Source: a virus. Taken from it: a stretch of DNA of 64,000 bases. Positions 48,883 through 60,637 of the stretch are shown in pieces. The stretch spans positions 32,001 through 96,000 of IMG/VR virus record IMGVR_UViG_3300044591_000896. One strand, given 5' to 3'. Each line of letters begins with the position of its first letter. The first letter of the stretch is position 1. Below the pieces are notes generated by a model. It did not search any database and was not told the origin of the DNA. It was given only the letters and a program-made list of their open reading frames with translations. Both the position numbers and the translations under genes were made by a program.

Positions 48883-49358
48883 TATACTTCCTCCAGCGTC
48901 ATTGATATTGTCCAGAAAGAATGTAATCCACGCTTTTGTAAGACTGCGGAAAATTCTGTAAACGATACTGTATATACTTCTCCTGTATTGACATTGTCTT
49001 CTGCGGCACCAGACTTTGCAAAATTTAATAGTATTCTAAATGTGCCCTTGCCCTCTTCGCTTGCATAAAATCTTCTTAGATCTTCTGCCCCAAGGTTTCC
49101 GTCTGCCGTATGTGTTCTTGTAGTTGGTAGCATATTCCAAGACATGCTAAATGTTTTTTTATCAGCAATAAAAAATTTTCTGAGGGTTCCGTTAGCCATT
49201 CTTTGAACTTGCTGGATTCTATTTGAGCCTACAGTTATTTCTGATCTATTGTGGTCAGATATTTTTAGCCAAGTTAAAGTGGTGCCTGGTACAGTGGCAA
49301 GAACATCCTTGCCCTCTATTTGTAGCCCTACGCCTTTAGGTAATTTTGTATAACCCAT
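48882..49358 (-). CDS. Distal tail (Dit-like) protein
   Basis: Directly after the TMP; RMANGTLR...KKTFSMSW...SMTLEEV. Confidence 0.7.
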   Translation of the reverse strand: MGYTKLPKGVGLQIEGKDVLATVPGTTLTWLKISDHNRSEITVGSNRIQQVQRMANGTLRKFFIADKKTFSMSWNMLPTTRTHTADGNLGAEDLRRFYASEEGKGTFRILLNFAKSGAAEDNVNTGEVYTVSFTEFSAVLQKRGLHSFWTISMTLEEV

Positions 49359-52300
49359 TATGCTCTAACCTCCAATCCACTTCCTAGTGATCTACTTTCT
49401 CCCATAGATTTAACTGATATCTTGCTCATTGTCTTCATAGACTCAACTGTTTTTCTTGTAACCATATCAGATAGTGCATTTATGTCACCATCAAATCCAT
49501 TAATATTATTTGTAATGTTATATACGCCTCCACCCATTGTAGCATTATTAGCATTAGGATTAAAGGGGTTCATGTTAGCAGGAACTACTGCTTCATTCTT
49601 ATGAAGCATCGCAAGCATATCTGCTGGGACATTATTAATTCCAGTTTCAAATTTAGGAATGTTGAATTTTCCTCCAGCCATTCCTCCTTCTGCAAAATGC
49701 CCAGCCTTTAAGAATGGCAAAACCTTACCCAATCTTTCTTTTTGATCAGCAGCTCTCGTAACAATTTCTGTTAGTGTTTTTTCTAATTCTGATGATATTT
49801 TAGTAAATCCCACTTTGCTTAAGTTCAGGGAATCAAAAAATCCTAGATCTCTTCCATCTAATATCTTTTTAAATCCAGATACTACTTTTTGAGGAGCTAA
49901 AGATGCTACAACTGGGTGGGACACAGAATTTGTATTTCTTCCACCTTCATGAACTATTGTGTCAATAAGGTATTTAAATCCTTTTGGACCTAGCTTGGTA
50001 AAAGCTAGCCTTAAATTCTCTCCTTGCAAGAAGCTATCTCTTGCTCTACCAAGTGAGCTAAATGCTTGACCAGGTATTCTTTCTCCTGCCAACATCAGTC
50101 TTGCAGTTTCCATTCCGTGAGTTTTAGCTAAAAACGATTCTAGAGCTGCATAGGCTCTTTTGCTTTGAGACCAAATTGATTTCTGTCCGCCACGTAAATC
50201 TAAAGTTTTTCTTCCAGTAAGTTTTTTGAAAAACATTTCATATATGTTTCCAGCTTCTTCGCTAAACACATTAACCGTATTTTTAGTTTTTGAATATGAT
50301 GAAGACATTCCTTTTGAAGCTGTGGTAAACAAATCAAAGTCAAAAAGGTTTCCGAACATGCTGTGCTTAGCAGCAAACATGTCATCTACTGCATTTCCTA
50401 AAACACCAGGTACTGATCTATCTAAAAGTGTTTCTGGAAGTATGCCTCCATGATAAAAAGGACGCATTGATAGCTCTTTAAGTGTTTCAAACATTTCTGG
50501 TCCTGAGCTTGGATCAACTGCTGAAGGTGACCAGCTTCCTTCTCTTCCACCCATTTCTAATATTTTTCTAGCTTTCATTGTTCCATATGGGGTGTATCTG
50601 TATAAGAAATTTGATATAGCTTGCTTTGGATTAAATGAAGATTTTGCTGGCAATATAAATTCTTTAAAGAATTTAAATGAATTCTTTTTAGCATCAATGC
50701 CAGAAGTTATTTTTGACTTTACCTTGCTTCCAATTTTAGCAATAGGATTTAAAGTTGTCGCTTTAGTTAAATTAGATAGTAGCCCAAAAAGTTCACCAAA
50801 GGCTTCCTGAGGATTTGTCTTACCAACATTGCTTAGGTCTGCCCAATCATCCCAAGCCTTTGCTCCTCCAGGAGCACCAGTACGAGATGGTAGAATACGA
50901 GGACGATTTGTAATATCGTCAAAAAAGCTTTTGCCTGTTCTTCTAACATAATCGGCTGTATTAGTAAATACAGATGGAACCCCCTTTGGACTATAAGGTC
51001 TAAAGCCAGCAATTTTAGGTATTTTATACAACGCCTCTTTGCCTACTTTTGTTGCGCCAACTGTTTTCCATAACACAGACCTTAGAGTATTTAATATGCC
51101 TTTAGGCGTTTGTTGTACGGCTCTTAGTGCTGCTGATCCCAACATCTTTGCAGATGGTGCAGCAACATCTAGTGGGTACTTTGATATAGATTTTGCTGCT
51201 TTGGTTTTGCCTACAAGGAAGTTGAGGGGGAATAACGCAGCATTTGCATAGTCACCCTTATTTGGTTTTCCAAAGAATTCGCTTTCTTTTCCTCCTCGAA
51301 AAATTTTATTTCCTGTTTGCATTAATCCTTTTATACCTAATGCGTCAAGCCAAGGTACTGAGAATCCCCTAAACAGTCCATCTCCAACTGCTGGTCCATA
51401 AGAATAAGGAGAGTTGTTGGATGAACTTTTATTTTTAGATTGGCTTTCAGTATAAACTCCCTTATCAATATATCTAGCATTAAGCTGATCAAGAGTCATT
51501 CCCTTTGTATCTATTACACTGATACCAAATCCACCACTCAACTTATCATAAACATAATGTTTTTTTCCATCAAGCTTTGTCCATTTAGGCGCTGACATCA
51601 CATTTGTTGAGTCGTGCTTATGACCTACTGGACCACCGTCATGGAACCCTTTTATCCTGCCTAGTGGATGATTTTTGACTCCAGTATAGAATGGAGCAAA
51701 TTGTCCAGCAGTTTCATTGCCAATCATGTACTTGGTTCCAATGTATCCGTCTTTCATAGCTGCTTGGACTGCTGGATGATTAAATTTTACTCCATACATA
51801 CCTTCTGTAAGACCATACTTTTTTGCCATATCTGTAGAGCTAGCAAACCCTTTACTTTTTAATATTGTCATTATGGCTTTAACATCTAGCTTTGTCTTAT
51901 ATGAGTTACTACCGTATCTTGGATTTCCAGCTTGATACTTAGGGCTTGATGAAAAGTGTGTAAAGTTTCCTAAAGTTTGTTCTTTTTGAGCCTGGTATTC
52001 GAGTGGATGTAAAAGCTCATCAGCTAGGTTTGGATTTGGGGAATTATGGACTCCCTGCTTCATAAGCTTAAGTGCTTCTAGTTTATTTCTAGTAGATCTG
52101 ATGGCTCTGGTTGGCCTAATAAATGGAATTATAGATGCGTAGTCCATAGCTCCAGCGTTGCCTTGTGCAATTCTTCCAGCTGTGTTGTACATTGAAATTT
52201 CTTTTAATGCCTCTAAAGCAGTAGCGTTCTTTTCTGACTGGCTTAAAGATGTCTTGTATTCTGGTGCACGGTAATCAAGTTTTTTTGCTCCATGGTTTTG

Positions 52301-55300
52301 CATTCCAGTAACATAAGCACTTCCTGCATTACTAAACCAATTTAATGGATTAAATCTTGACAGCCAGCCACCTTCTGCAAACCCAGGAATCATTCCGCCT
52401 TTATTTAAATATCCTGAGTTTATTGGTGAGGGTGACCCTAATCCAACTGGGCCACCACCTGCAAGCTTTTGAGCATTTAGTCCATCAAAGAAACTAACTC
52501 CATATTGCTTTACAGCTTTTTCTTTAATTACATACTCACCATTTGAAAGCCAAGCTGGAATAGAATCAGATGTTCCAGTTCCTGGACCCTTTACATTTCC
52601 ACCCCACTCAAAATTCTTAACTGGTCCTCCTGTAGCATAGGATCTAAATCCAACATTAGGAATATTGTATCCCCAATATCCAACTACTTTTCCTCCCTTT
52701 GTTACAGAACCATTGTGCTCATATTTTAATCCGTCTTGAACAAGAGGAGTTTTTACTCCTTTATTGTAAAGTGCTAGATTTATGTCTTGCACTCCGTTAA
52801 GCGCACCACGATTTACTTTGCTATTTGGATATATATAAGCTTCTCCAGACATAGGCTTTTCTGGGTTCTCAAAGTACTTTGCTCTTCCTTTAGCTCCTTT
52901 GCCAACAGATTTTCCATCTGCTGTAAAGTATTCCATTTTATTATAATCATTAGGATTTTCTGGGTCTTTTTTAATTTCTCCACGAAGCTTGCTTAAAGGT
53001 ATAGTTCTTGTTCCATTAACCTCATCTAATCCAGTTAATGTTTTAACATACAAACCAAAGTCTTCAACGTGAGTGCCAAATTTTTCAAAATAAGTTTTAG
53101 CATATTCTACTGTTGAATTTGCTGGGCCACCAGGATCATTTGTTAATGATTTAAGATACGCTACCCAGTCTTGTTTACCAGGCTGTACTATAGGCTGGCC
53201 TCCTGGCGTTACTATTGTTGATCCCTTTGATGTTGGAACTCCGCTTGTTACGGTTTTAGCAGCTTTTGCACCATCTGATCCAAGCGCTGCTAAGGCAGCT
53301 ACATCTGAGCGAAGTGCCTCAGCAAGTAAAGCAATTGTTCCTTCGTCTGTTGTAATTGCTGCTTTAGATAAAGTTGTTGCAATGCTCTGCTGCAATGCTT
53401 GTACTGACGCATATTCTTTTTGCTTAGCGTTAGCTATTTCCTGTAACTTGTTTGCTCGCTCTTGAAGCTTAATAAGTCTCTCTTGAACACCAGCTTTTTG
53501 AGCCTCAAGTTTTTTAACTTCTGCATCTCTCTTATCTTGAATTGCATTTATTGATAGTGTTTTTTGTCTTTCGTTTGTTAAGCTTTGTATATTAAGCTGG
53601 GATTGTGCTGCACGAGACATATCGCCAGACAATAATGCTTGCTGGTAGTTTAGTTGCTCTTTTTGAACCTCTGTTAAATAGTCTTGCTTTTCTGCTTGAT
53701 CTTCAATGGCACGTATTCTTGCATCTGCTTCTTCATTGATTTTTTCTATCTTTTTATCAAGAGCTTTTATTTCTGCATCTGCATTCTTTTGAGCATTCTT
53801 TGTTGCATCATCTGATGCCTTTTTTGCATCATCGTATGCTTTCTTTGCAGCTGCTCCGTATTCTGCAATTGCATCAATTGGGTTATTCATTAAATTAGCA
53901 TTTGTTGTCATCTCTGTTGCTGCTTGAGATATAGCGTTTACAACCTGTAGTAGTCCTTGAGCCTCTTCTCCACTTATATCAGAAAGGTCTGCTGTGACTC
54001 CATTTGTATATAACTGTATTTTTGCCCAAGCATCAACCATGCTATCAGTTGAATTTAATATGTCTTTATATAGTGGGTTTTCTTGTATAAGTGTATTTAA
54101 TATATTGTCGCCAATATCTTGTTGATTAGATTTGTTGGCATTCATGTGGGCTATAGTGTCATTTAAAGCTTCTACTTGTGACTTTGCTTTTCCGCTAGCA
54201 TCTTTTACCCCTACTAAGCTTTGGTAATAAAGCTGTATTGCATCTAATCCACCGCTAAATGATGCTGCAATTTCTTTTTTATCAACATCGGAAGCATTCA
54301 TTGACTTTACAAAAGTATCTATTGCTACCTTTGCTGCTGAGGCTCTATCGACTATCTTTAAAAATTCTGTTGATGATACAGCCTCTGTAGCCTGTGAAGC
54401 TTTATTTGAAATAGATATAATGCTGTAAATTTCTCTTGCTGCATCCTGTGCTGATTTTCCTGCTGCAACTAGCTGAACCTTTAGTGCTGTTGCTGCTTTT
54501 GTAACATCATTTTTATCAAGGTCATTAAACATAGACACAATATCGCCTTGTGTCTCTTTGGCTTTCTTTTGTAATGCATTAAGTTCTTTTACGGACATAT
54601 TAATTCCGCCGCCAATTGCAGTAGATCCCGCTGCCTTTACCTTAGTTAATTGACTTTGTGCTTGTGCTGCATCTGTTGCCTTTTTTATTTTATCAGTTAA
54701 ACTTACGTATGCAATTCCAAGTTGTTTTGCTTGCTTTTCATTTACATCAAAAGCTTCTTGAGAGGCAAGTCTTGCCTTTCTTGCATTCTCCCACGCTCCA
54801 TAAGATACTGTTGCAAGTGTTGTAAGTGCTACTACTGCTACCTTACCCCAACCAGGAATTGCCATTCCAACTAATCTTAGTTTGGCTAAGCTTTGTGCAA
54901 ATTTACTAACGCTCTTAGTTGCTACTGCGGTTTCTGCGGCATCGTCTACAACACTACCTGCTGCTTTAGCAGCCTTTGCAGCCTTTGCAGTTTTTACACC
55001 CTTGTAAATTGATCCAGCAGTCATTACTGCAAATATTCCATTTAGAATAAGGTTTGATTTTTCGCTGGCGATTCCCAACTTCTCTAAAGCTTTTGGCAAT
55101 AACATGAATGCAGCTAATGGCAAAGCTTGCTGTGCTACAATGCTTGCAACTGGACCTAGTGCTCCATAATTATACTTTCCAGTTCTAATCATTCCGCCTA
55201 ATGCATGGTTAGGAACAATACCTCCACTGTTCATAGGAACAAATAGCTCTGGCCCCTTTTCTCCAACTATGTAAGGTGTGCCACCAGATACAGGTCCGCC

Positions 55301-58300
55301 CTTTTCTCTGCCCTCTAAGCCAAATATTAATTTCTTTAGCTCTTCTGTTAATGGAGTATCTTTTCTAGATTCCCAATTTGTGTATCTTCTCTTAAGAATA
55401 TCTCTATCTATTGCAGATAATACTCTTCTTCCTTCTGGTGCGGAAATTGTAGAAGACGCAGCTGATCTAATGACTGAGTCCATAATGTCTGGCTCTAGTG
55501 CTTTTAATAATTGTCCTTGTGCATTTTTAGCATAGCCATATGGCATTTCTTTTGCAAGTGCTTCTGCAAACTTGTCATAAAGAATTCTTTGTGTTCTCTT
55601 TGTTAATCCGCTAGAAGCAAATAGCTTTTCTGCCATTCCTATTTCTAGTGATGTTACTCCCCATCCGCCAGTTGTATTCTTGCCAAACCCTGCACCAATT
55701 CTACGCATAGCAAGAGATTTAATAACATTGATTAATCCACCGCCATTAAATCCATTAGCATCAGATTTAAATGCCATATCACTTAGGCTTACAGCGTGGC
55801 CTTTTTGTCTTGCTCTTAATGCTGCAGCTTCTTCTAATTTAGCAAGCGCTGCTGGTGTTAATGATTTTGGAGCTGTTGGTTTGACTGCTGAATGTATGCC
55901 ATGAAACTCTTTCCAGTTTACATGCCTTGCATCTTCAAGTCTTTTTATCATTGCAGCATAAACTTCTTCTTCTCTTGGAGTTAGACCTTTAAAGCCAGCA
56001 ATTGTTTCTTTTAGTCTAGGAAGGACTTCATCAATTTCATTAAGCATCGATTGCTGATATTGCTGAGGGGTCATTCCTCTTGGAATGTCTACTGTTGATT
56101 CTGCAAAAAATCTCTTTGCTCCGCCCTTTACGCCAAGTAAATTAATTCTTGCTTGTTCTGCAACTGATGGCATATCGTCTGCATATGATCTTAAACCAGA
56201 AGCTGTTTTAAATACACCCATAGTTCCGCCGTCTGCAACAAAACTTCCTCCAATGTTGCCAGGTGATAAGTCTTTATCTCCTCTTAATGCTGATGCAAGT
56301 AACTGCTGGAAGTACTCCTGCTCTGACATTTCTTTTGGTAAGCTTGCAAATCTTGGATCATAAGGTGATTCAAGAACAAGAAGCTTTCTTTTACCTGCTG
56401 GATCTGTTGGGTCTATCATTACCCTTATTTCCTGCTGAGGAGGTGTTAATCTATGTGCGCCTTGGTGTATTGCATTATATCTTTGCTCAGCAAGTGCAGC
56501 AGTTTCATCAAGGACTGGCTTAACAAATACTCTTGTTCCATCTGGCTTTGTGTATACTCCGCCCACTCCTTCAACTGGGAAGCTGTGTCCTTTTGTATCT
56601 TCTTCTTTCTTTCCAAAGTTAGTTGGTTCTTCTTTTGCAAAACGACTCTTGTTAACTGCTTCTGTCGTCTGCTCCATAACCTCTCTACGTTTTCTTTGCT
56701 CTTGAACCTGCTTAATTGATTTAGGCATTCCAAGGAATAATCTTCCATAGTTAGCTTTTCTCTTTTTAATGATTCCGCCCATTGCAAAGCCATCAAGCAT
56801 CATATGAGCAAATGCTCCATCTTCACCATTAATCTTTAGTTCTTTAGGATTATATGTTTCATAAGAGCCCATAAAGTTTGTACCAAACTCTTCATTTTTT
56901 GTTATTAAAGTATCAAGATCAGATGTTCTATATGGACTTATTGCTGTTGCACCCTGAAATCCAGAGGAGTGGTTTCCTGGATCTTTGAACCCTCTTCTCT
57001 GCCCAGGTACATTTAAAGAATCAATATATCTTTTTCTTAGCCCTAGCTGATCTGCTATTTTAAGGTACTCTGCGTGTTGAGCTTGTGCAAATAGTCTTTC
57101 TCCAATAAGCGAGTCTCCATGTGATGCAAGATTTGATACGATACCGTCTCTTGCCTCTAGCACAAGTCTATCAGCCAACTCGTCATCTATTTTATTTACT
57201 TTTAAAAATCTTCTTAGTGCTGGTAGTGCCTCTGAAGGGGGAAGGAACATTATGTCATCTATTATTTCTTGTGGCTTAGCTGTCCCCGCATTTATCTTTG
57301 AATTTGTTGTTTTTCTAGTATTCAGTCCCCAGTTTCCAACAAAGAAGTATCCATTTTTATTTCCAAGAACTCCTCTTCTTGGTGCAGCAGCTCCAAATAC
57401 GCCTTCAACATAATCATGAGCATCATCTGCGTCAGTTCTATGCTCTCTTCCAAGCCTTATTTGTGGCGAAAGGTTTGCTAAATCATCTGCTGACTTTGCT
57501 TTCTTTCTTTTAAACAAACTCTTTAATGCATCAAATCTTCCATAGTTGTGCTTGCCAGAAACAATTGGTCCGCCTAAGATTCCGCCTGCATTTCTAAATT
57601 GAATTCTTTGTCCGTTATTTGCTGCCTCTAGTATAGGCAACATCTCTTGTGTTTGTTCTGGTGTAAATACTGTCTCATATGGAGTCAGCATTGCATCAAT
57701 CATTCCGCCACGGTTATATGGCTTACTCTTTTTTGCATATTCCACTAGCTGTGGATTATTTCTTGTTGCATCTTGATTTAATACAAAACCACCAACTGGT
57801 ATTTTTGCCATTGTGTTGTCATAGTTTACACTCTTGTCACCAGGTACAACTGGGCCATCTTCTAATGTGTATACATATCCACCATCATTAAAGCCTCTAA
57901 GTGGACCTCTCTTTGGAAGAATAATTCTTGGCTTAGTTGTTTCTATGCTGTATCCGCCGCCAGAAGTTCTAACACCTAATCCTTCTGCAACCTTATCGAC
58001 AAGAGCTGCTGTCTCTGGCTTATGGAACATTTCTTTCATGTTGGACTTGCCAGTTACTGGATCAACCACTGGCTGGCTAGTAAATGGTACTGTAGTTAGA
58101 TTTATTCCTCTTCCCATACCAGCGGCAACCTGTGCAGCTGTTTCTGCCATCATAACTTCAATGGTTGCATTTAATGAAATAATTTTTGCTCTTGCTTGAT
58201 CTACAGTGATTACACCTTGCTGTAGCTGTCTTACAATCATAGCTCCTTCATCTGCAGCCAATTGTGTGAGCTGTTGCATCTGTGGAAGCATTGCTTGGTA

Positions 58301-60637
58301 TACTGAAGATAACTCATGTGTAACTGTGCCAGTTGCTGCTACTTCGGTCTTTAATAATGAAAGCTCTGCTTGTGACTGTGTAGCAATTGCTGCTGTCATA
58401 GCATGCCATTTAGCAGCTTCTGCAGCTACGATTCCCGTAGAAACTCCACTTATAGATGTTACGCCAGGAACTCTTGGAAGATCCTGATCCATATACATCT
58501 GTGGGTTGTTGCTTACTCTAACATTTACTGGACCTGGGTTTGGAACAACGCCAAATATGGTTCCTGGCTGCTGTATAGCTGCAGGTATGGTGTGTGCAAA
58601 TTGTCTGCTATAAGGAGCCCCTATAAACTTGCTATCTTTATCTGCCATTCTTTCTGCATTTGCTGCAACGCCTGTTGGAGACAATACTGTTGCTCCACCC
58701 ATTGTACTTATACTTGAGCTTGTTGCAACTGCTGAATTTAATGCGCTTGCCTTCAATCTATCAAATGACGCTGCAAGATTATTAACTGCTGTCTCTAATG
58801 CTATTGCAGCTTGTGCATCACTAAAGAATGATTTTTCTACAACCTTACCAGCTTCTGCTGCTGCCATCATTTCAGGTGTTAATAATTTAAATCCTGAGCC
58901 ACCCTTAAATAATTGCTTTAGATGGAATACTCCCTTGATAATATATCCAAGGAAGTTTCCAAGCACACCAGTAAGCATGATAAGTGGTCCTGCAAATGCT
59001 GTTAGTCCACCAAGGAATGTCAGTAATGACTTGATTGGTCCTGGTAGATTTTCTACAAACTTAATTATTCCGCTGATTGTTTTTAATACAAATGTGCTTA
59101 TCTTTAAGAACTGATCACCGACGCCTGCAAGTTCTGCCTTAATTGTTTCAAGTGCTCTTTTGTATTGTCCAGATGCAGACTCTGTCATAGCCTTTAATTC
59201 TCGGTCTGCTATACTTGCTAGCTCTTCTGTGCTTGCTTTCATCAAATCTAATACTTGTAAAGTTTGTGAGCCCTCTTTTCCAAGGTTATTAAATAAAGCT
59301 CCCATACGAGCAAACTGGAATTTTCCAAAAAGTTGCTCAATTGCCTGAGCTTTTTGTAACGGATCTAGCTTATCTAATGATGCTTGTAGTGCTAATATTG
59401 TTGCAGTTACATCTCCAGCATTACTCTTTACAATTGATCCAAGATCAATTCCAAATCCCATAAACATTTCTTTTGCAACTTTAGTTGGGTTAATAAGTGA
59501 TGCAAGAGATGACTTAATGGCATTAGCACCTTCTGATGCATTTACTCCGCCTTCTTTCATTGCAGTTAAATAAAGAGCAAGATCTTGAACGTTTCCACCA
59601 AGAGATTCAATTACTGGTCCTGCTTTTGGAATTGCTTCAACTAAATCCGCAAGAGATGTTGAGGTCTGGTTTTCAACTGCGTTAAGGAAGTTAATTGATT
59701 GTGCTAACTCATCATTGCTTTGTTTAAATGCATTTTGAATAGCAAGAGTTGCTTTCATTGCATCTTGTCTATCTACTTCACCAAGGATAGAAAGTCTTGT
59801 TGTTTCTTGCGTTGATACAAGCAGGTCATTTCCTTGCTTGCCAGTTGCTGCAATATCCGCTGCTAATGCGATTGTTTCTTTATATGATGCACCATAGATA
59901 GACGCTAATTCTTTTGCTGTCTCCTCGACATCTTTTCTAACTTGCTTTAGTTCTGCAGAAGATGTTTCTGCTAAACCACCGTAAACCTTTGTAAGTCTAA
60001 CTAGCTGCTGGTCTGCTTCTAGGAATGCTTTTTGTGCTGCCGCACCAAATGCCATCATTGGAACTGTTAATCCAACTGTTAACTGGCGTCCTGCCCACTG
60101 TGTATTTTTACCCCAGTTGATAAGCTGGTTGGATCCATCAAGCATCACCTTGTTAAGAATTGATGCCTCTTGTCTTAATAAAGCAGTTCTATTTTTTAAA
60201 AGATCTAGTCCATTAGCTACGTGGACATTGTATTGCATTTGCCCCTGGGCATTTCTTCCCAGGGGTTGCAATACAGCTTGTTCCATTAATACTTGCTGCT
60301 TAGCAAGATCTTTAATTAATGTACTTGTTTTTCTTGTGTGTCCTTGCCAGACTCCAAAGTACTCGCCAAGTTTCATTCGGCCAGTATCTAGCCTCTTTCC
60401 AAACTTTTGTACATCAGATTCAAGTGTTACAAAGTGTGAAGAAAATTGTCCAGTTGCTCGCATTGTTTCGGCAAATGAACGATTCATTCTGCCTACTTCA
60501 TTAGATAGGTTTCTATCTAATCCAATGGTTGTAGCTTGAAGTTTAACTAACTCGGCGGTTACGGCTCTTAACTGCGCTGTTAAACTTGAAAAGTTTGCCG
60601 TCGCAGTTATGTTCGTATTAATATTTTGTTCAGCCAA
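49358..60637 (-). CDS. Giant tape measure protein (3759 aa) with embedded kinase-like and ADP-ribosyltransferase-like domains
   Basis: Follows the tail chaperones; N-terminal TP901-type TMP core (GRQLTVGLTVP...GVNASEGANAIKS...EQLFGK); TM segments; repeated xxGG motifs. TTG start with GGAG. Confidence 0.93.
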   Translation of the reverse strand: MAEQNINTNITATANFSSLTAQLRAVTAELVKLQATTIGLDRNLSNEVGRMNRSFAETMRATGQFSSHFVTLESDVQKFGKRLDTGRMKLGEYFGVWQGHTRKTSTLIKDLAKQQVLMEQAVLQPLGRNAQGQMQYNVHVANGLDLLKNRTALLRQEASILNKVMLDGSNQLINWGKNTQWAGRQLTVGLTVPMMAFGAAAQKAFLEADQQLVRLTKVYGGLAETSSAELKQVRKDVEETAKELASIYGASYKETIALAADIAATGKQGNDLLVSTQETTRLSILGEVDRQDAMKATLAIQNAFKQSNDELAQSINFLNAVENQTSTSLADLVEAIPKAGPVIESLGGNVQDLALYLTAMKEGGVNASEGANAIKSSLASLINPTKVAKEMFMGFGIDLGSIVKSNAGDVTATILALQASLDKLDPLQKAQAIEQLFGKFQFARMGALFNNLGKEGSQTLQVLDLMKASTEELASIADRELKAMTESASGQYKRALETIKAELAGVGDQFLKISTFVLKTISGIIKFVENLPGPIKSLLTFLGGLTAFAGPLIMLTGVLGNFLGYIIKGVFHLKQLFKGGSGFKLLTPEMMAAAEAGKVVEKSFFSDAQAAIALETAVNNLAASFDRLKASALNSAVATSSSISTMGGATVLSPTGVAANAERMADKDSKFIGAPYSRQFAHTIPAAIQQPGTIFGVVPNPGPVNVRVSNNPQMYMDQDLPRVPGVTSISGVSTGIVAAEAAKWHAMTAAIATQSQAELSLLKTEVAATGTVTHELSSVYQAMLPQMQQLTQLAADEGAMIVRQLQQGVITVDQARAKIISLNATIEVMMAETAAQVAAGMGRGINLTTVPFTSQPVVDPVTGKSNMKEMFHKPETAALVDKVAEGLGVRTSGGGYSIETTKPRIILPKRGPLRGFNDGGYVYTLEDGPVVPGDKSVNYDNTMAKIPVGGFVLNQDATRNNPQLVEYAKKSKPYNRGGMIDAMLTPYETVFTPEQTQEMLPILEAANNGQRIQFRNAGGILGGPIVSGKHNYGRFDALKSLFKRKKAKSADDLANLSPQIRLGREHRTDADDAHDYVEGVFGAAAPRRGVLGNKNGYFFVGNWGLNTRKTTNSKINAGTAKPQEIIDDIMFLPPSEALPALRRFLKVNKIDDELADRLVLEARDGIVSNLASHGDSLIGERLFAQAQHAEYLKIADQLGLRKRYIDSLNVPGQRRGFKDPGNHSSGFQGATAISPYRTSDLDTLITKNEEFGTNFMGSYETYNPKELKINGEDGAFAHMMLDGFAMGGIIKKRKANYGRLFLGMPKSIKQVQEQRKRREVMEQTTEAVNKSRFAKEEPTNFGKKEEDTKGHSFPVEGVGGVYTKPDGTRVFVKPVLDETAALAEQRYNAIHQGAHRLTPPQQEIRVMIDPTDPAGKRKLLVLESPYDPRFASLPKEMSEQEYFQQLLASALRGDKDLSPGNIGGSFVADGGTMGVFKTASGLRSYADDMPSVAEQARINLLGVKGGAKRFFAESTVDIPRGMTPQQYQQSMLNEIDEVLPRLKETIAGFKGLTPREEEVYAAMIKRLEDARHVNWKEFHGIHSAVKPTAPKSLTPAALAKLEEAAALRARQKGHAVSLSDMAFKSDANGFNGGGLINVIKSLAMRRIGAGFGKNTTGGWGVTSLEIGMAEKLFASSGLTKRTQRILYDKFAEALAKEMPYGYAKNAQGQLLKALEPDIMDSVIRSAASSTISAPEGRRVLSAIDRDILKRRYTNWESRKDTPLTEELKKLIFGLEGREKGGPVSGGTPYIVGEKGPELFVPMNSGGIVPNHALGGMIRTGKYNYGALGPVASIVAQQALPLAAFMLLPKALEKLGIASEKSNLILNGIFAVMTAGSIYKGVKTAKAAKAAKAAGSVVDDAAETAVATKSVSKFAQSLAKLRLVGMAIPGWGKVAVVALTTLATVSYGAWENARKARLASQEAFDVNEKQAKQLGIAYVSLTDKIKKATDAAQAQSQLTKVKAAGSTAIGGGINMSVKELNALQKKAKETQGDIVSMFNDLDKNDVTKAATALKVQLVAAGKSAQDAAREIYSIISISNKASQATEAVSSTEFLKIVDRASAAKVAIDTFVKSMNASDVDKKEIAASFSGGLDAIQLYYQSLVGVKDASGKAKSQVEALNDTIAHMNANKSNQQDIGDNILNTLIQENPLYKDILNSTDSMVDAWAKIQLYTNGVTADLSDISGEEAQGLLQVVNAISQAATEMTTNANLMNNPIDAIAEYGAAAKKAYDDAKKASDDATKNAQKNADAEIKALDKKIEKINEEADARIRAIEDQAEKQDYLTEVQKEQLNYQQALLSGDMSRAAQSQLNIQSLTNERQKTLSINAIQDKRDAEVKKLEAQKAGVQERLIKLQERANKLQEIANAKQKEYASVQALQQSIATTLSKAAITTDEGTIALLAEALRSDVAALAALGSDGAKAAKTVTSGVPTSKGSTIVTPGGQPIVQPGKQDWVAYLKSLTNDPGGPANSTVEYAKTYFEKFGTHVEDFGLYVKTLTGLDEVNGTRTIPLSKLRGEIKKDPENPNDYNKMEYFTADGKSVGKGAKGRAKYFENPEKPMSGEAYIYPNSKVNRGALNGVQDINLALYNKGVKTPLVQDGLKYEHNGSVTKGGKVVGYWGYNIPNVGFRSYATGGPVKNFEWGGNVKGPGTGTSDSIPAWLSNGEYVIKEKAVKQYGVSFFDGLNAQKLAGGGPVGLGSPSPINSGYLNKGGMIPGFAEGGWLSRFNPLNWFSNAGSAYVTGMQNHGAKKLDYRAPEYKTSLSQSEKNATALEALKEISMYNTAGRIAQGNAGAMDYASIIPFIRPTRAIRSTRNKLEALKLMKQGVHNSPNPNLADELLHPLEYQAQKEQTLGNFTHFSSSPKYQAGNPRYGSNSYKTKLDVKAIMTILKSKGFASSTDMAKKYGLTEGMYGVKFNHPAVQAAMKDGYIGTKYMIGNETAGQFAPFYTGVKNHPLGRIKGFHDGGPVGHKHDSTNVMSAPKWTKLDGKKHYVYDKLSGGFGISVIDTKGMTLDQLNARYIDKGVYTESQSKNKSSSNNSPYSYGPAVGDGLFRGFSVPWLDALGIKGLMQTGNKIFRGGKESEFFGKPNKGDYANAALFPLNFLVGKTKAAKSISKYPLDVAAPSAKMLGSAALRAVQQTPKGILNTLRSVLWKTVGATKVGKEALYKIPKIAGFRPYSPKGVPSVFTNTADYVRRTGKSFFDDITNRPRILPSRTGAPGGAKAWDDWADLSNVGKTNPQEAFGELFGLLSNLTKATTLNPIAKIGSKVKSKITSGIDAKKNSFKFFKEFILPAKSSFNPKQAISNFLYRYTPYGTMKARKILEMGGREGSWSPSAVDPSSGPEMFETLKELSMRPFYHGGILPETLLDRSVPGVLGNAVDDMFAAKHSMFGNLFDFDLFTTASKGMSSSYSKTKNTVNVFSEEAGNIYEMFFKKLTGRKTLDLRGGQKSIWSQSKRAYAALESFLAKTHGMETARLMLAGERIPGQAFSSLGRARDSFLQGENLRLAFTKLGPKGFKYLIDTIVHEGGRNTNSVSHPVVASLAPQKVVSGFKKILDGRDLGFFDSLNLSKVGFTKISSELEKTLTEIVTRAADQKERLGKVLPFLKAGHFAEGGMAGGKFNIPKFETGINNVPADMLAMLHKNEAVVPANMNPFNPNANNATMGGGVYNITNNINGFDGDINALSDMVTRKTVESMKTMSKISVKSMGESRSLGSGLEVRA

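Follow-up and report, generated by a model that had tools for sequence, protein, structure and literature searches.

Tape measure proteins (TMPs) lie in a few copies in the lumen of the tail tube, in a non-globular state, and are ejected ahead of the DNA upon host binding. Some carry catalytic or signalling modules that become exposed after ejection, such as the peptidase of T5 pb2 and the Rpf-like motif of mycobacteriophage TM4. Here we describe a kinase-fold cassette inside the giant TMP of an uncultured lake phage of ~115 kb and set it beside the closest described systems. The window—the whole stretch of DNA analysed, 64,000 nucleotides—comprises bases 32001–96000 of the 115,479-bp IMG/VR virus record IMGVR_UViG_3300044591_000896, which carries direct terminal repeats. 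Positions below are those of the window.

TMPs have been described as metastable in the tube lumen and as expelled into the envelope before the DNA, with globular parts thought to fold after release (PMC10770324, PMC13277306). Muralytic and other TMP motifs are also referred to in PMC13277306; unlike the role proposed for the cassette, the muralytic motifs act on peptidoglycan outside the cytoplasm and are ATP-independent. For a cytoplasm-acting enzyme fused to a TMP, we found one published precedent, gp96 of Thermus phage P23-45, a 5,002-aa TMP fused to a virion RNA polymerase that is proposed to be injected and to transcribe pre-early genes (PMC10770324). Both are giant TMPs with an enzyme module, which in gp96 has to function on the cytoplasmic side at the start of infection, as is proposed here. 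In gp96, however, an RNA polymerase occupies the N-terminus, the host lineage is another one, and the activity has been shown experimentally, whereas here a kinase-fold module sits in the variable middle of the protein.

The same concept—a giant multidomain protein that houses a kinase, is presumed to enter along with the injected DNA, and is presumed to alter proteins of the host—was put forward by Iyer, Burroughs, Anand, de Souza, and Aravind in 2017, who predicted kinase domains in injected polyvalent proteins of phages and conjugative elements (PMC5512222). Their kinase clade has lost the whole C-terminal subdomain and occurs mainly in Verrucomicrobia–Chlamydia and Bacteroidetes (pro)phages (PMC5512222). 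The model of the present cassette keeps a helical C-terminal half of ~130 residues, and the cassette lies in TMPs of probable actinobacterial phages. Tape measure proteins are mentioned nowhere in that paper (0 occurrences in PMC5512222). T7 gp0.7, a kinase whose targets soon after infection are host proteins, is cited there as a phage-kinase precedent; it is a functional analogy only, because it is produced from an early gene once the DNA has entered and forms no part of the virion. Our full-text literature searches returned no paper describing a kinase in a TMP.

Among kinases of similar fold, CtkA, LepB, and MavQ are enzymes that bacteria deliver into another cell. The HipA/HipA_2/CtkA/PI3K–PI4K/LepB-N/MavQ group is structurally close to the cassette (Z 8.7–9.8 to HipA, CtkA, PI4KIIα, and MavQ), which differs in having its own N-terminal helix and helical C-lobe, a DKDLxxxN loop, and a place inside a structural phage protein. 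CotH (5jda), an atypical Ser/Thr(/Tyr) kinase of the Bacillus spore coat (PF08757), shares the bilobal kinase-like fold and the setting within a large proteinaceous assembly; it differs in being free-standing and acting in spore-coat assembly (PMC7821199), whereas the cassette is a domain inside a tail protein.

Our favoured reading is that residues 1299–1629 of the TMP form a self-contained, catalytically competent kinase that is delivered by the TMP and acts on a host substrate before phage gene expression. In our judgment, this reading has a somewhat better than even chance of being right. The reading frame of the TMP runs through the cassette, so that the two are translated together; the cassette is an optional element of the variable region behind a conserved TMP core. 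Its extent is as follows.

49358..60637, minus strand: TMP open reading frame (ORF), 3,759 aa, TTG start; contains the kinase cassette
55751..56743, minus strand: kinase-fold cassette, homology unit aa 1299–1629, from homologues and the AlphaFold2 model
55844–56716, minus strand: confidently folded part, aa 1308–1598, from the AlphaFold2 model
56744..56788, minus strand: upstream junction FAMGG...ANYG, aa 1284–1298 (FAMGG 1284–1288, ANYG 1295–1298)
55736..55750, minus strand: downstream junction FNGGG, aa 1630–1634

An earlier note, made from the letters of this DNA, had proposed a kinase domain at 55890–56600. That range corresponds to aa 1346–1583 and covers the catalytic core; part of the module as now delimited falls outside it. 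Every motif that the note listed occurs in the minus-strand frame of the ORF.

We modelled aa 1299–1629 with AlphaFold2 from a 44-sequence alignment (pLDDT 86.1, pTM 0.79). The model runs from an N-terminal helix through β1, a 12-residue Gly-rich loop, β2, β3, helix C, β4, β5, and a hinge to a helix (E) that ends at R1452; it continues with the D1454-K-D1456-L-x-x-x-N1461 loop, a short β6/β7 hairpin, D1469-x-G1471, and ~130 residues of helices. In model numbering, the Gly-rich loop lies between strands 45–49 and 62–65, K1373 in strand 71–77, and E1384 in helix 80–95. The predicted structure thus presents the features of the protein-kinase-like superfamily: a bilobal fold, a Gly-rich loop, a β3 Lys, a helix-C Glu, an Asp-x4-Asn loop, and a downstream Asp. 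The residues that the note had assigned as lysine, glutamate, catalytic loop, and metal-binding aspartate fall, in the model, on β3, helix C, the loop after helix E, and the DFG-equivalent position.

A structure search with VIA-align, independent of Foldseek and covering 48,161 chains, placed CotH (5jda) at the top (Z 11.3; 219 residues aligned, rmsd 4.0), followed by MavQ (Z 9.8), PI4KIIα (Z 9.5), CtkA (Z 9.1), HipA (Z 8.7), Fam20C (Z 8.7), PI4KIIIβ (Z 8.5), and actin-fragmin kinase (Z 8.2). Kinase-like enzymes made up 49 of the top 50 rows, with Z 11.3–8.2 to eleven atypical kinases. Lower rows held PIKKs, RIO, Bud32, WaaP, and aminoglycoside or macrolide phosphotransferases; Vps34 and other PI3Ks were also found. 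Foldseek against the PDB gave a top 50 consisting entirely of protein kinases or LepB-N, and the neighbours with family names in a protein-language-model comparison were LepB_N, PI3_PI4_kinase, Act-Frag_cataly, and HipA_2. An AlphaFold check, suggested with the initial proposal, therefore turned out in its favour: A kinase-like fold is predicted with high confidence, and its nearest structures include HipA, CtkA, and PI3K/PI4K. A kinase fold with an intact active site is well supported.

The residues expected of an active site were located as follows.

56552..56590, minus strand: Gly-rich loop, G1350-x-S1352-F-P...G1357-x-G-G1360-x-Y1362, between β1 and β2
56552–56569, minus strand: GVGGVY, aa 1357–1362
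56516–56530, minus strand: VFVKP, aa 1370–1374
56519..56521, minus strand: K1373, the β3 lysine of VFVKP
56483–56497, minus strand: ALAEQ, aa 1381–1385
56486..56488, minus strand: E1384, the helix-C glutamate of ALAE
56255..56284, minus strand: catalytic loop RGDKDLSPGN (R1452-G-D1454-K-D1456-L-S-P-G-N1461), directly after model helix 141–154
56225..56236, minus strand: ADGG, aa 1468–1471, with D1469 as the DFG-equivalent metal-binding Asp, after a short β hairpin

Conservation was counted over 144 representative domains (50% clustering) that are 28–87% identical to the query. The Gly-rich loop is close to invariant (G1350 133/133, S1352 132/133, G1360 133/133, Y1362 129/133), and K1373 (133/133), E1384 (136/136), and Q1445 (143/143) are kept wherever they could be counted. 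In the catalytic loop, R1452 is retained in 138 of 144 sequences, D1456 in 143, and N1461 in all 144; downstream, D1469 is kept in 144/144 and G1471 in 141/144. D1454 is kept in 138/144 and replaced by Asn in the other six, which retain every other catalytic residue. D1456-x4-N1461 has the canonical catalytic-loop spacing. Because of that spacing, and because D1454 is Asn in six sequences, the catalytic base is, judging by sequence, most likely D1456 rather than D1454; a counterpoint is that alignment to a HipA_2 profile (below) pairs D1454 with the HipA_2 DR motif. The loop reads DKDLxxxN, as opposed to the DRHxxN of PI3_PI4_kinase, with no His and no insert. The spacing from N1461 to D1469 is eight residues, shorter than in canonical kinases.

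The cassette had no Pfam match at E ≤ 10, no PHROG or NCBIfam match, and no PDB sequence match by phmmer or profile. Across 44 aligned relatives, hmmscan returned scattered noise and a single PF00454 match (E 0.0082, 1/44), with no CotH; PF08757 itself had zero matches in the phage genome at E ≤ 10. For profile comparison with hhalign, we built CotH and HipA_2 profiles from Actinomycetota genomes. The CotH profile (23 sequences, Actinomycetota loci) gave E 0.21, taken as no signal, and the cassette family aligned to the single E. coli HipA sequence likewise gave no signal. A 12-sequence HipA_2 profile produced a weak colinear match (E 8e-4, probability 25%, 191 columns) in which the β3 Lys (VK lysine), the helix-C Glu, the catalytic loop, and D1469 with the IDH Asp are in register. 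The placement beside HipA, CtkA, and PI3K–PI4K in the earlier note thus holds at the level of fold; by sequence, none of the Pfam models of the HipA and PI3K/PI4K families scored above its threshold on the cassette. Because no curated sequence model detects it, we regard the cassette as a new, unannotated family of the protein-kinase-like superfamily, outside the CotH and PI3K/PI4K families and probably also outside HipA.

Fold matches in BFVD include large phage proteins annotated as ADP-ribosyltransferase (ART) or as PI3K/PI4K-domain proteins (E 3.8e-5 to 7e-4). The best are a Mycobacterium phage Onyinye "ADP-ribosyltransferase" (1,340 aa) and "PI3K/PI4K catalytic domain" proteins of uncultured phages, together with proteins of haloarchaeal tailed viruses and a "portal" fusion of 1,201 aa. 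These matches suggest that other giant proteins associated with virions have related kinase folds, and polyvalent proteins of the virion may often carry such folds as cargo.

That the cassette is embedded in a TMP, as first proposed, is borne out by matches at the N-terminus of the ORF: PF10145 (8e-25), TIGR01760 (6.8e-28), and nine TMP PHROGs, led by phrog_10030 (4.6e-124). The gene also lies in a siphovirus-type tail module: Downstream of it come minor tail and tail proteins, and upstream an Ig-domain protein as well as small ORFs, so both the core domain and the tail-module position point to a TMP. Hydrophobic segments, called by Kyte–Doolittle (19-aa window, ≥1.5), flank the cassette, which falls between aa 537–571 and aa 1829–1848.

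58088..60610, minus strand: TMP core, aa 10–850, from Pfam and PHROG matches
58925..59029, minus strand: first hydrophobic segment, aa 537–571, a putative membrane hairpin closing the TMP core
55094..55153, minus strand: second hydrophobic segment, aa 1829–1848, from Kyte–Doolittle

A HMMER scan of 1.84 billion representative proteins recovered 165 representative homologues (50% identity clusters), of which 141 have E-values below 1e-30. With few exceptions they form part of proteins 2,000–4,400 residues long, giant TMPs or TMP fragments, and free-standing kinase versions are essentially absent among them. IMG/VR holds at least 301 contigs or loci with the cassette, almost always within giant TMPs, whereas tblastn found the kinase in none of the 50,697 GenBank phage records. 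A TMP core precedes the kinase in 111 of 150 listed representatives; the other 39 are mostly fragments with the kinase at or near the N-terminus. Only the core (aa ~1–640) and the kinase (aa ~1300–1600) are widely shared across these 150, the other ~2,800 residues being hypervariable, and core aa 50–600 aligns in ~105 of them. A fixed partner domain for the kinase was considered and rejected on the same comparison.

We surveyed cassette presence in 80 IMG/VR TMPs whose cores are 69–76% identical to this one. The kinase is found in 46, in the same ORF as the core in 45 of the 46, at offsets ranging from ~500 to 2,100 residues. The cassette is therefore an optional element of shifting position; it does not belong to the tail-length or channel machinery. 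Its median start in relatives is aa 734; here it lies ~570 residues further from the core than in most relatives, partly because a ~245-residue module (aa 1040–1283, ~56789–57520, minus strand), present in only 2 of 150 representatives, intervenes directly upstream.

The junctions named in the earlier note (FAMGG, ANYG, FNGGG) are present, and their reading as linkers finds partial support: Within 60 aa of the module, homologues show a hydrophobic-x-x-GG motif on the upstream side in 44/122 cases and on the downstream side in 25/64, a modest enrichment over chance by rough estimate. In many homologues, a recurrent junction, ...IPG[FY]AxG(G)-x-[FL]LGMP, directly precedes the module. A 652-aa metagenomic TMP fragment (28% identity) carries the kinase, then the motif TDTVPAMLTPGEFVI, then an acid-phosphatase-like domain of the HAD superfamily (PF03767, E 1.2e-6, aa 436–562); kinase and phosphatase-type modules thus occur in one TMP.

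The nearest cultured TMP cores, at 33–35% identity, belong to ~133-kb Streptomyces phages and to Gordonia phages. Among 185,579 species genomes there were only two hits, both on contigs of metagenome-assembled genomes (MAGs), labelled Bifidobacterium and Acidimicrobiaceae. On the basis of these TMP cores and MAG matches, the host is probably an actinobacterium. In the Acidimicrobiaceae MAG, the cassette occurs on two separate contigs, at 50% and 47% identity and in both cases within an open frame of ~2,900 aa; the contigs may represent two related phages or prophages binned together.

Under the favoured reading—a TMP-delivered kinase acting on a host substrate—the cassette would refold on the cytoplasmic side after leaving the tube, bind ATP-Mg through the Gly-rich loop, K1373–E1384, N1461, and D1469, and, with D1456 as catalytic base, phosphorylate a host substrate ahead of all phage gene expression. 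That substrate would more likely be a protein than a lipid, and the purpose might be takeover, anti-defence, or assistance during entry. Because catalytic turnover amplifies its effect, an enzyme is well suited to being carried in few copies per virion. Virion delivery and a use in host takeover or anti-defence, both already proposed in the earlier note, are inferred here from the general behaviour of TMPs and from the P23-45 precedent (PMC10770324).

Several observations weigh against this reading. Foldseek scores against the PDB are weak (best E 1.7e-3, TM 0.2–0.27), for which reason we rely on VIA-align and on the uniformity of the hit lists, and sequence-level ties to known kinase families are weak or absent. 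About 18 complete close-core TMP ORFs (2,100–3,550 aa) are without the cassette, which is therefore dispensable for tail function and for infection as such. TMPs insert into the envelope, whereas ATP is cytoplasmic. Three folded domains of ~33 kDa would not fit side by side in the ~4-nm lumen of a siphophage tube; delivery would therefore require that the domain be stored unfolded and fold again once ejected.

This last requirement falls away if the cassette works in the cytoplasm of the producer cell, before or during tail assembly, as a kinase analogous to CotH that phosphorylates the TMP, other virion proteins, or, late in infection, host proteins and is a mere passenger in the next host. 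ATP is certain in the producer cell, CotH is the best structural match (Z 11.3), and CotH is itself a spore-coat component that polyphosphorylates coat proteins during assembly (PMC7821199). We nonetheless consider such a role unlikely: The cassette shows no profile similarity to CotH (E 0.21), fusion inside a TMP would have no obvious need and free-standing versions are essentially absent, and its variable position among hypervariable, cargo-like modules fits an exchangeable payload better than an assembly factor. Less likely still is a delivered lipid or small-molecule kinase at the membrane beside the TMP channel that aids channel formation, DNA entry, or membrane remodelling. Its appeal comes from the second and third structural ranks, MavQ (Z 9.8) and PI4KIIα (Z 9.5), with PI4KIIIβ, Vps34, and other PI3Ks also listed; from the language-model neighbours LepB_N and PI3_PI4_kinase; from the position between two hydrophobic regions of the TMP; and from the probable hosts, Actinomycetota being a phylum with phosphatidylinositol lipids. 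The protein kinases CotH, CtkA, HipA, Fam20C, and actin-fragmin kinase, however, score equally or better, the fold cannot separate lipid from protein kinases in this clade, and no lipid-binding element was identified in the cassette. A specific form of the idea strikes us as improbable: a MavQ/PI4K-type lipid kinase placed at the entry pore that would phosphorylate phosphatidylinositol-type lipids of the actinobacterial host within seconds of adsorption and so open or stabilise the DNA channel or rewire the membrane. If true, a lipid kinase delivered by a phage would be known for the first time, and genome entry in siphophages would have its first ATP-dependent step.

The remaining alternatives concern catalysis itself. 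Kinase folds are often reused for non-kinase roles, and the N1461–D1469 spacing is below canonical; both points speak for an inert module (a pseudokinase or nucleotide-binding spacer serving only as bulk, plug, or binding domain) or for other chemistry such as AMPylation or glutamylation (cf. SelO, SidJ). In pseudokinases, however, one or more of the Lys, Asp, Asn, and Asp residues is typically missing, and here all four are invariant or nearly so in 144 sequences down to 28% identity, as are the Gly-rich-loop glycine and the helix-C Glu. This invariance indicates selection for catalysis and leaves the inert or divergent module with a poor chance. Short kinase motifs could also arise in a 3,759-aa protein, and the searches of Pfam, PHROG, NCBIfam, and PDB sequences were negative; but chance resemblance in a non-globular TMP stretch is scarcely credible given a high-confidence globular model, near-exclusively kinase neighbours, invariant motif residues, and hundreds of homologues. 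We regard it as already refuted by the conservation counts, the AlphaFold2 model, and the VIA-align results.

Other features of the TMP and its surroundings were recorded alongside the cassette. Beyond the two widely shared parts, only a stretch at aa ~2651–2750 is common to many relatives (39–45 of 150); it contains the motif GPGTGTSDSIPAWLSNGEYVI. Three motifs of the type GE-x-V-[IV]P occur in the TMP (VGEKGPELFVP at aa ~1780, SNGEYVI at ~2700, HKNEAVVP at ~3680), and phrog_30701 and phrog_1538 match aa 1770–1816. Across the window (1–64000), every long ORF is encoded on the minus strand, the GC skew stays negative, and G+C is ~38%; plus-strand ORFs overlapping the TMP (e.g., 58629–59114) are presumably spurious.

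The cassette would define a new and widespread kinase-like family (at least 301 viral contigs, 165 clusters at 50% identity), overlooked entirely by present annotation pipelines. If it is active and delivered as we favour, a working kinase would be injected ahead of the DNA, an effector present before any phage gene is transcribed, with a timing relevant to pre-existing host defences and to host shutdown. It would extend the cargo of TMPs from cell-wall enzymes and one virion RNA polymerase to an ATP-dependent signalling enzyme, which would be new. The optional presence and shifting position of the cassette among near-identical cores suggest that giant TMPs use their variable part as a rack for exchangeable payloads—an idea that is testable in cultured actinobacteriophages and that may offer a route for engineered protein delivery.

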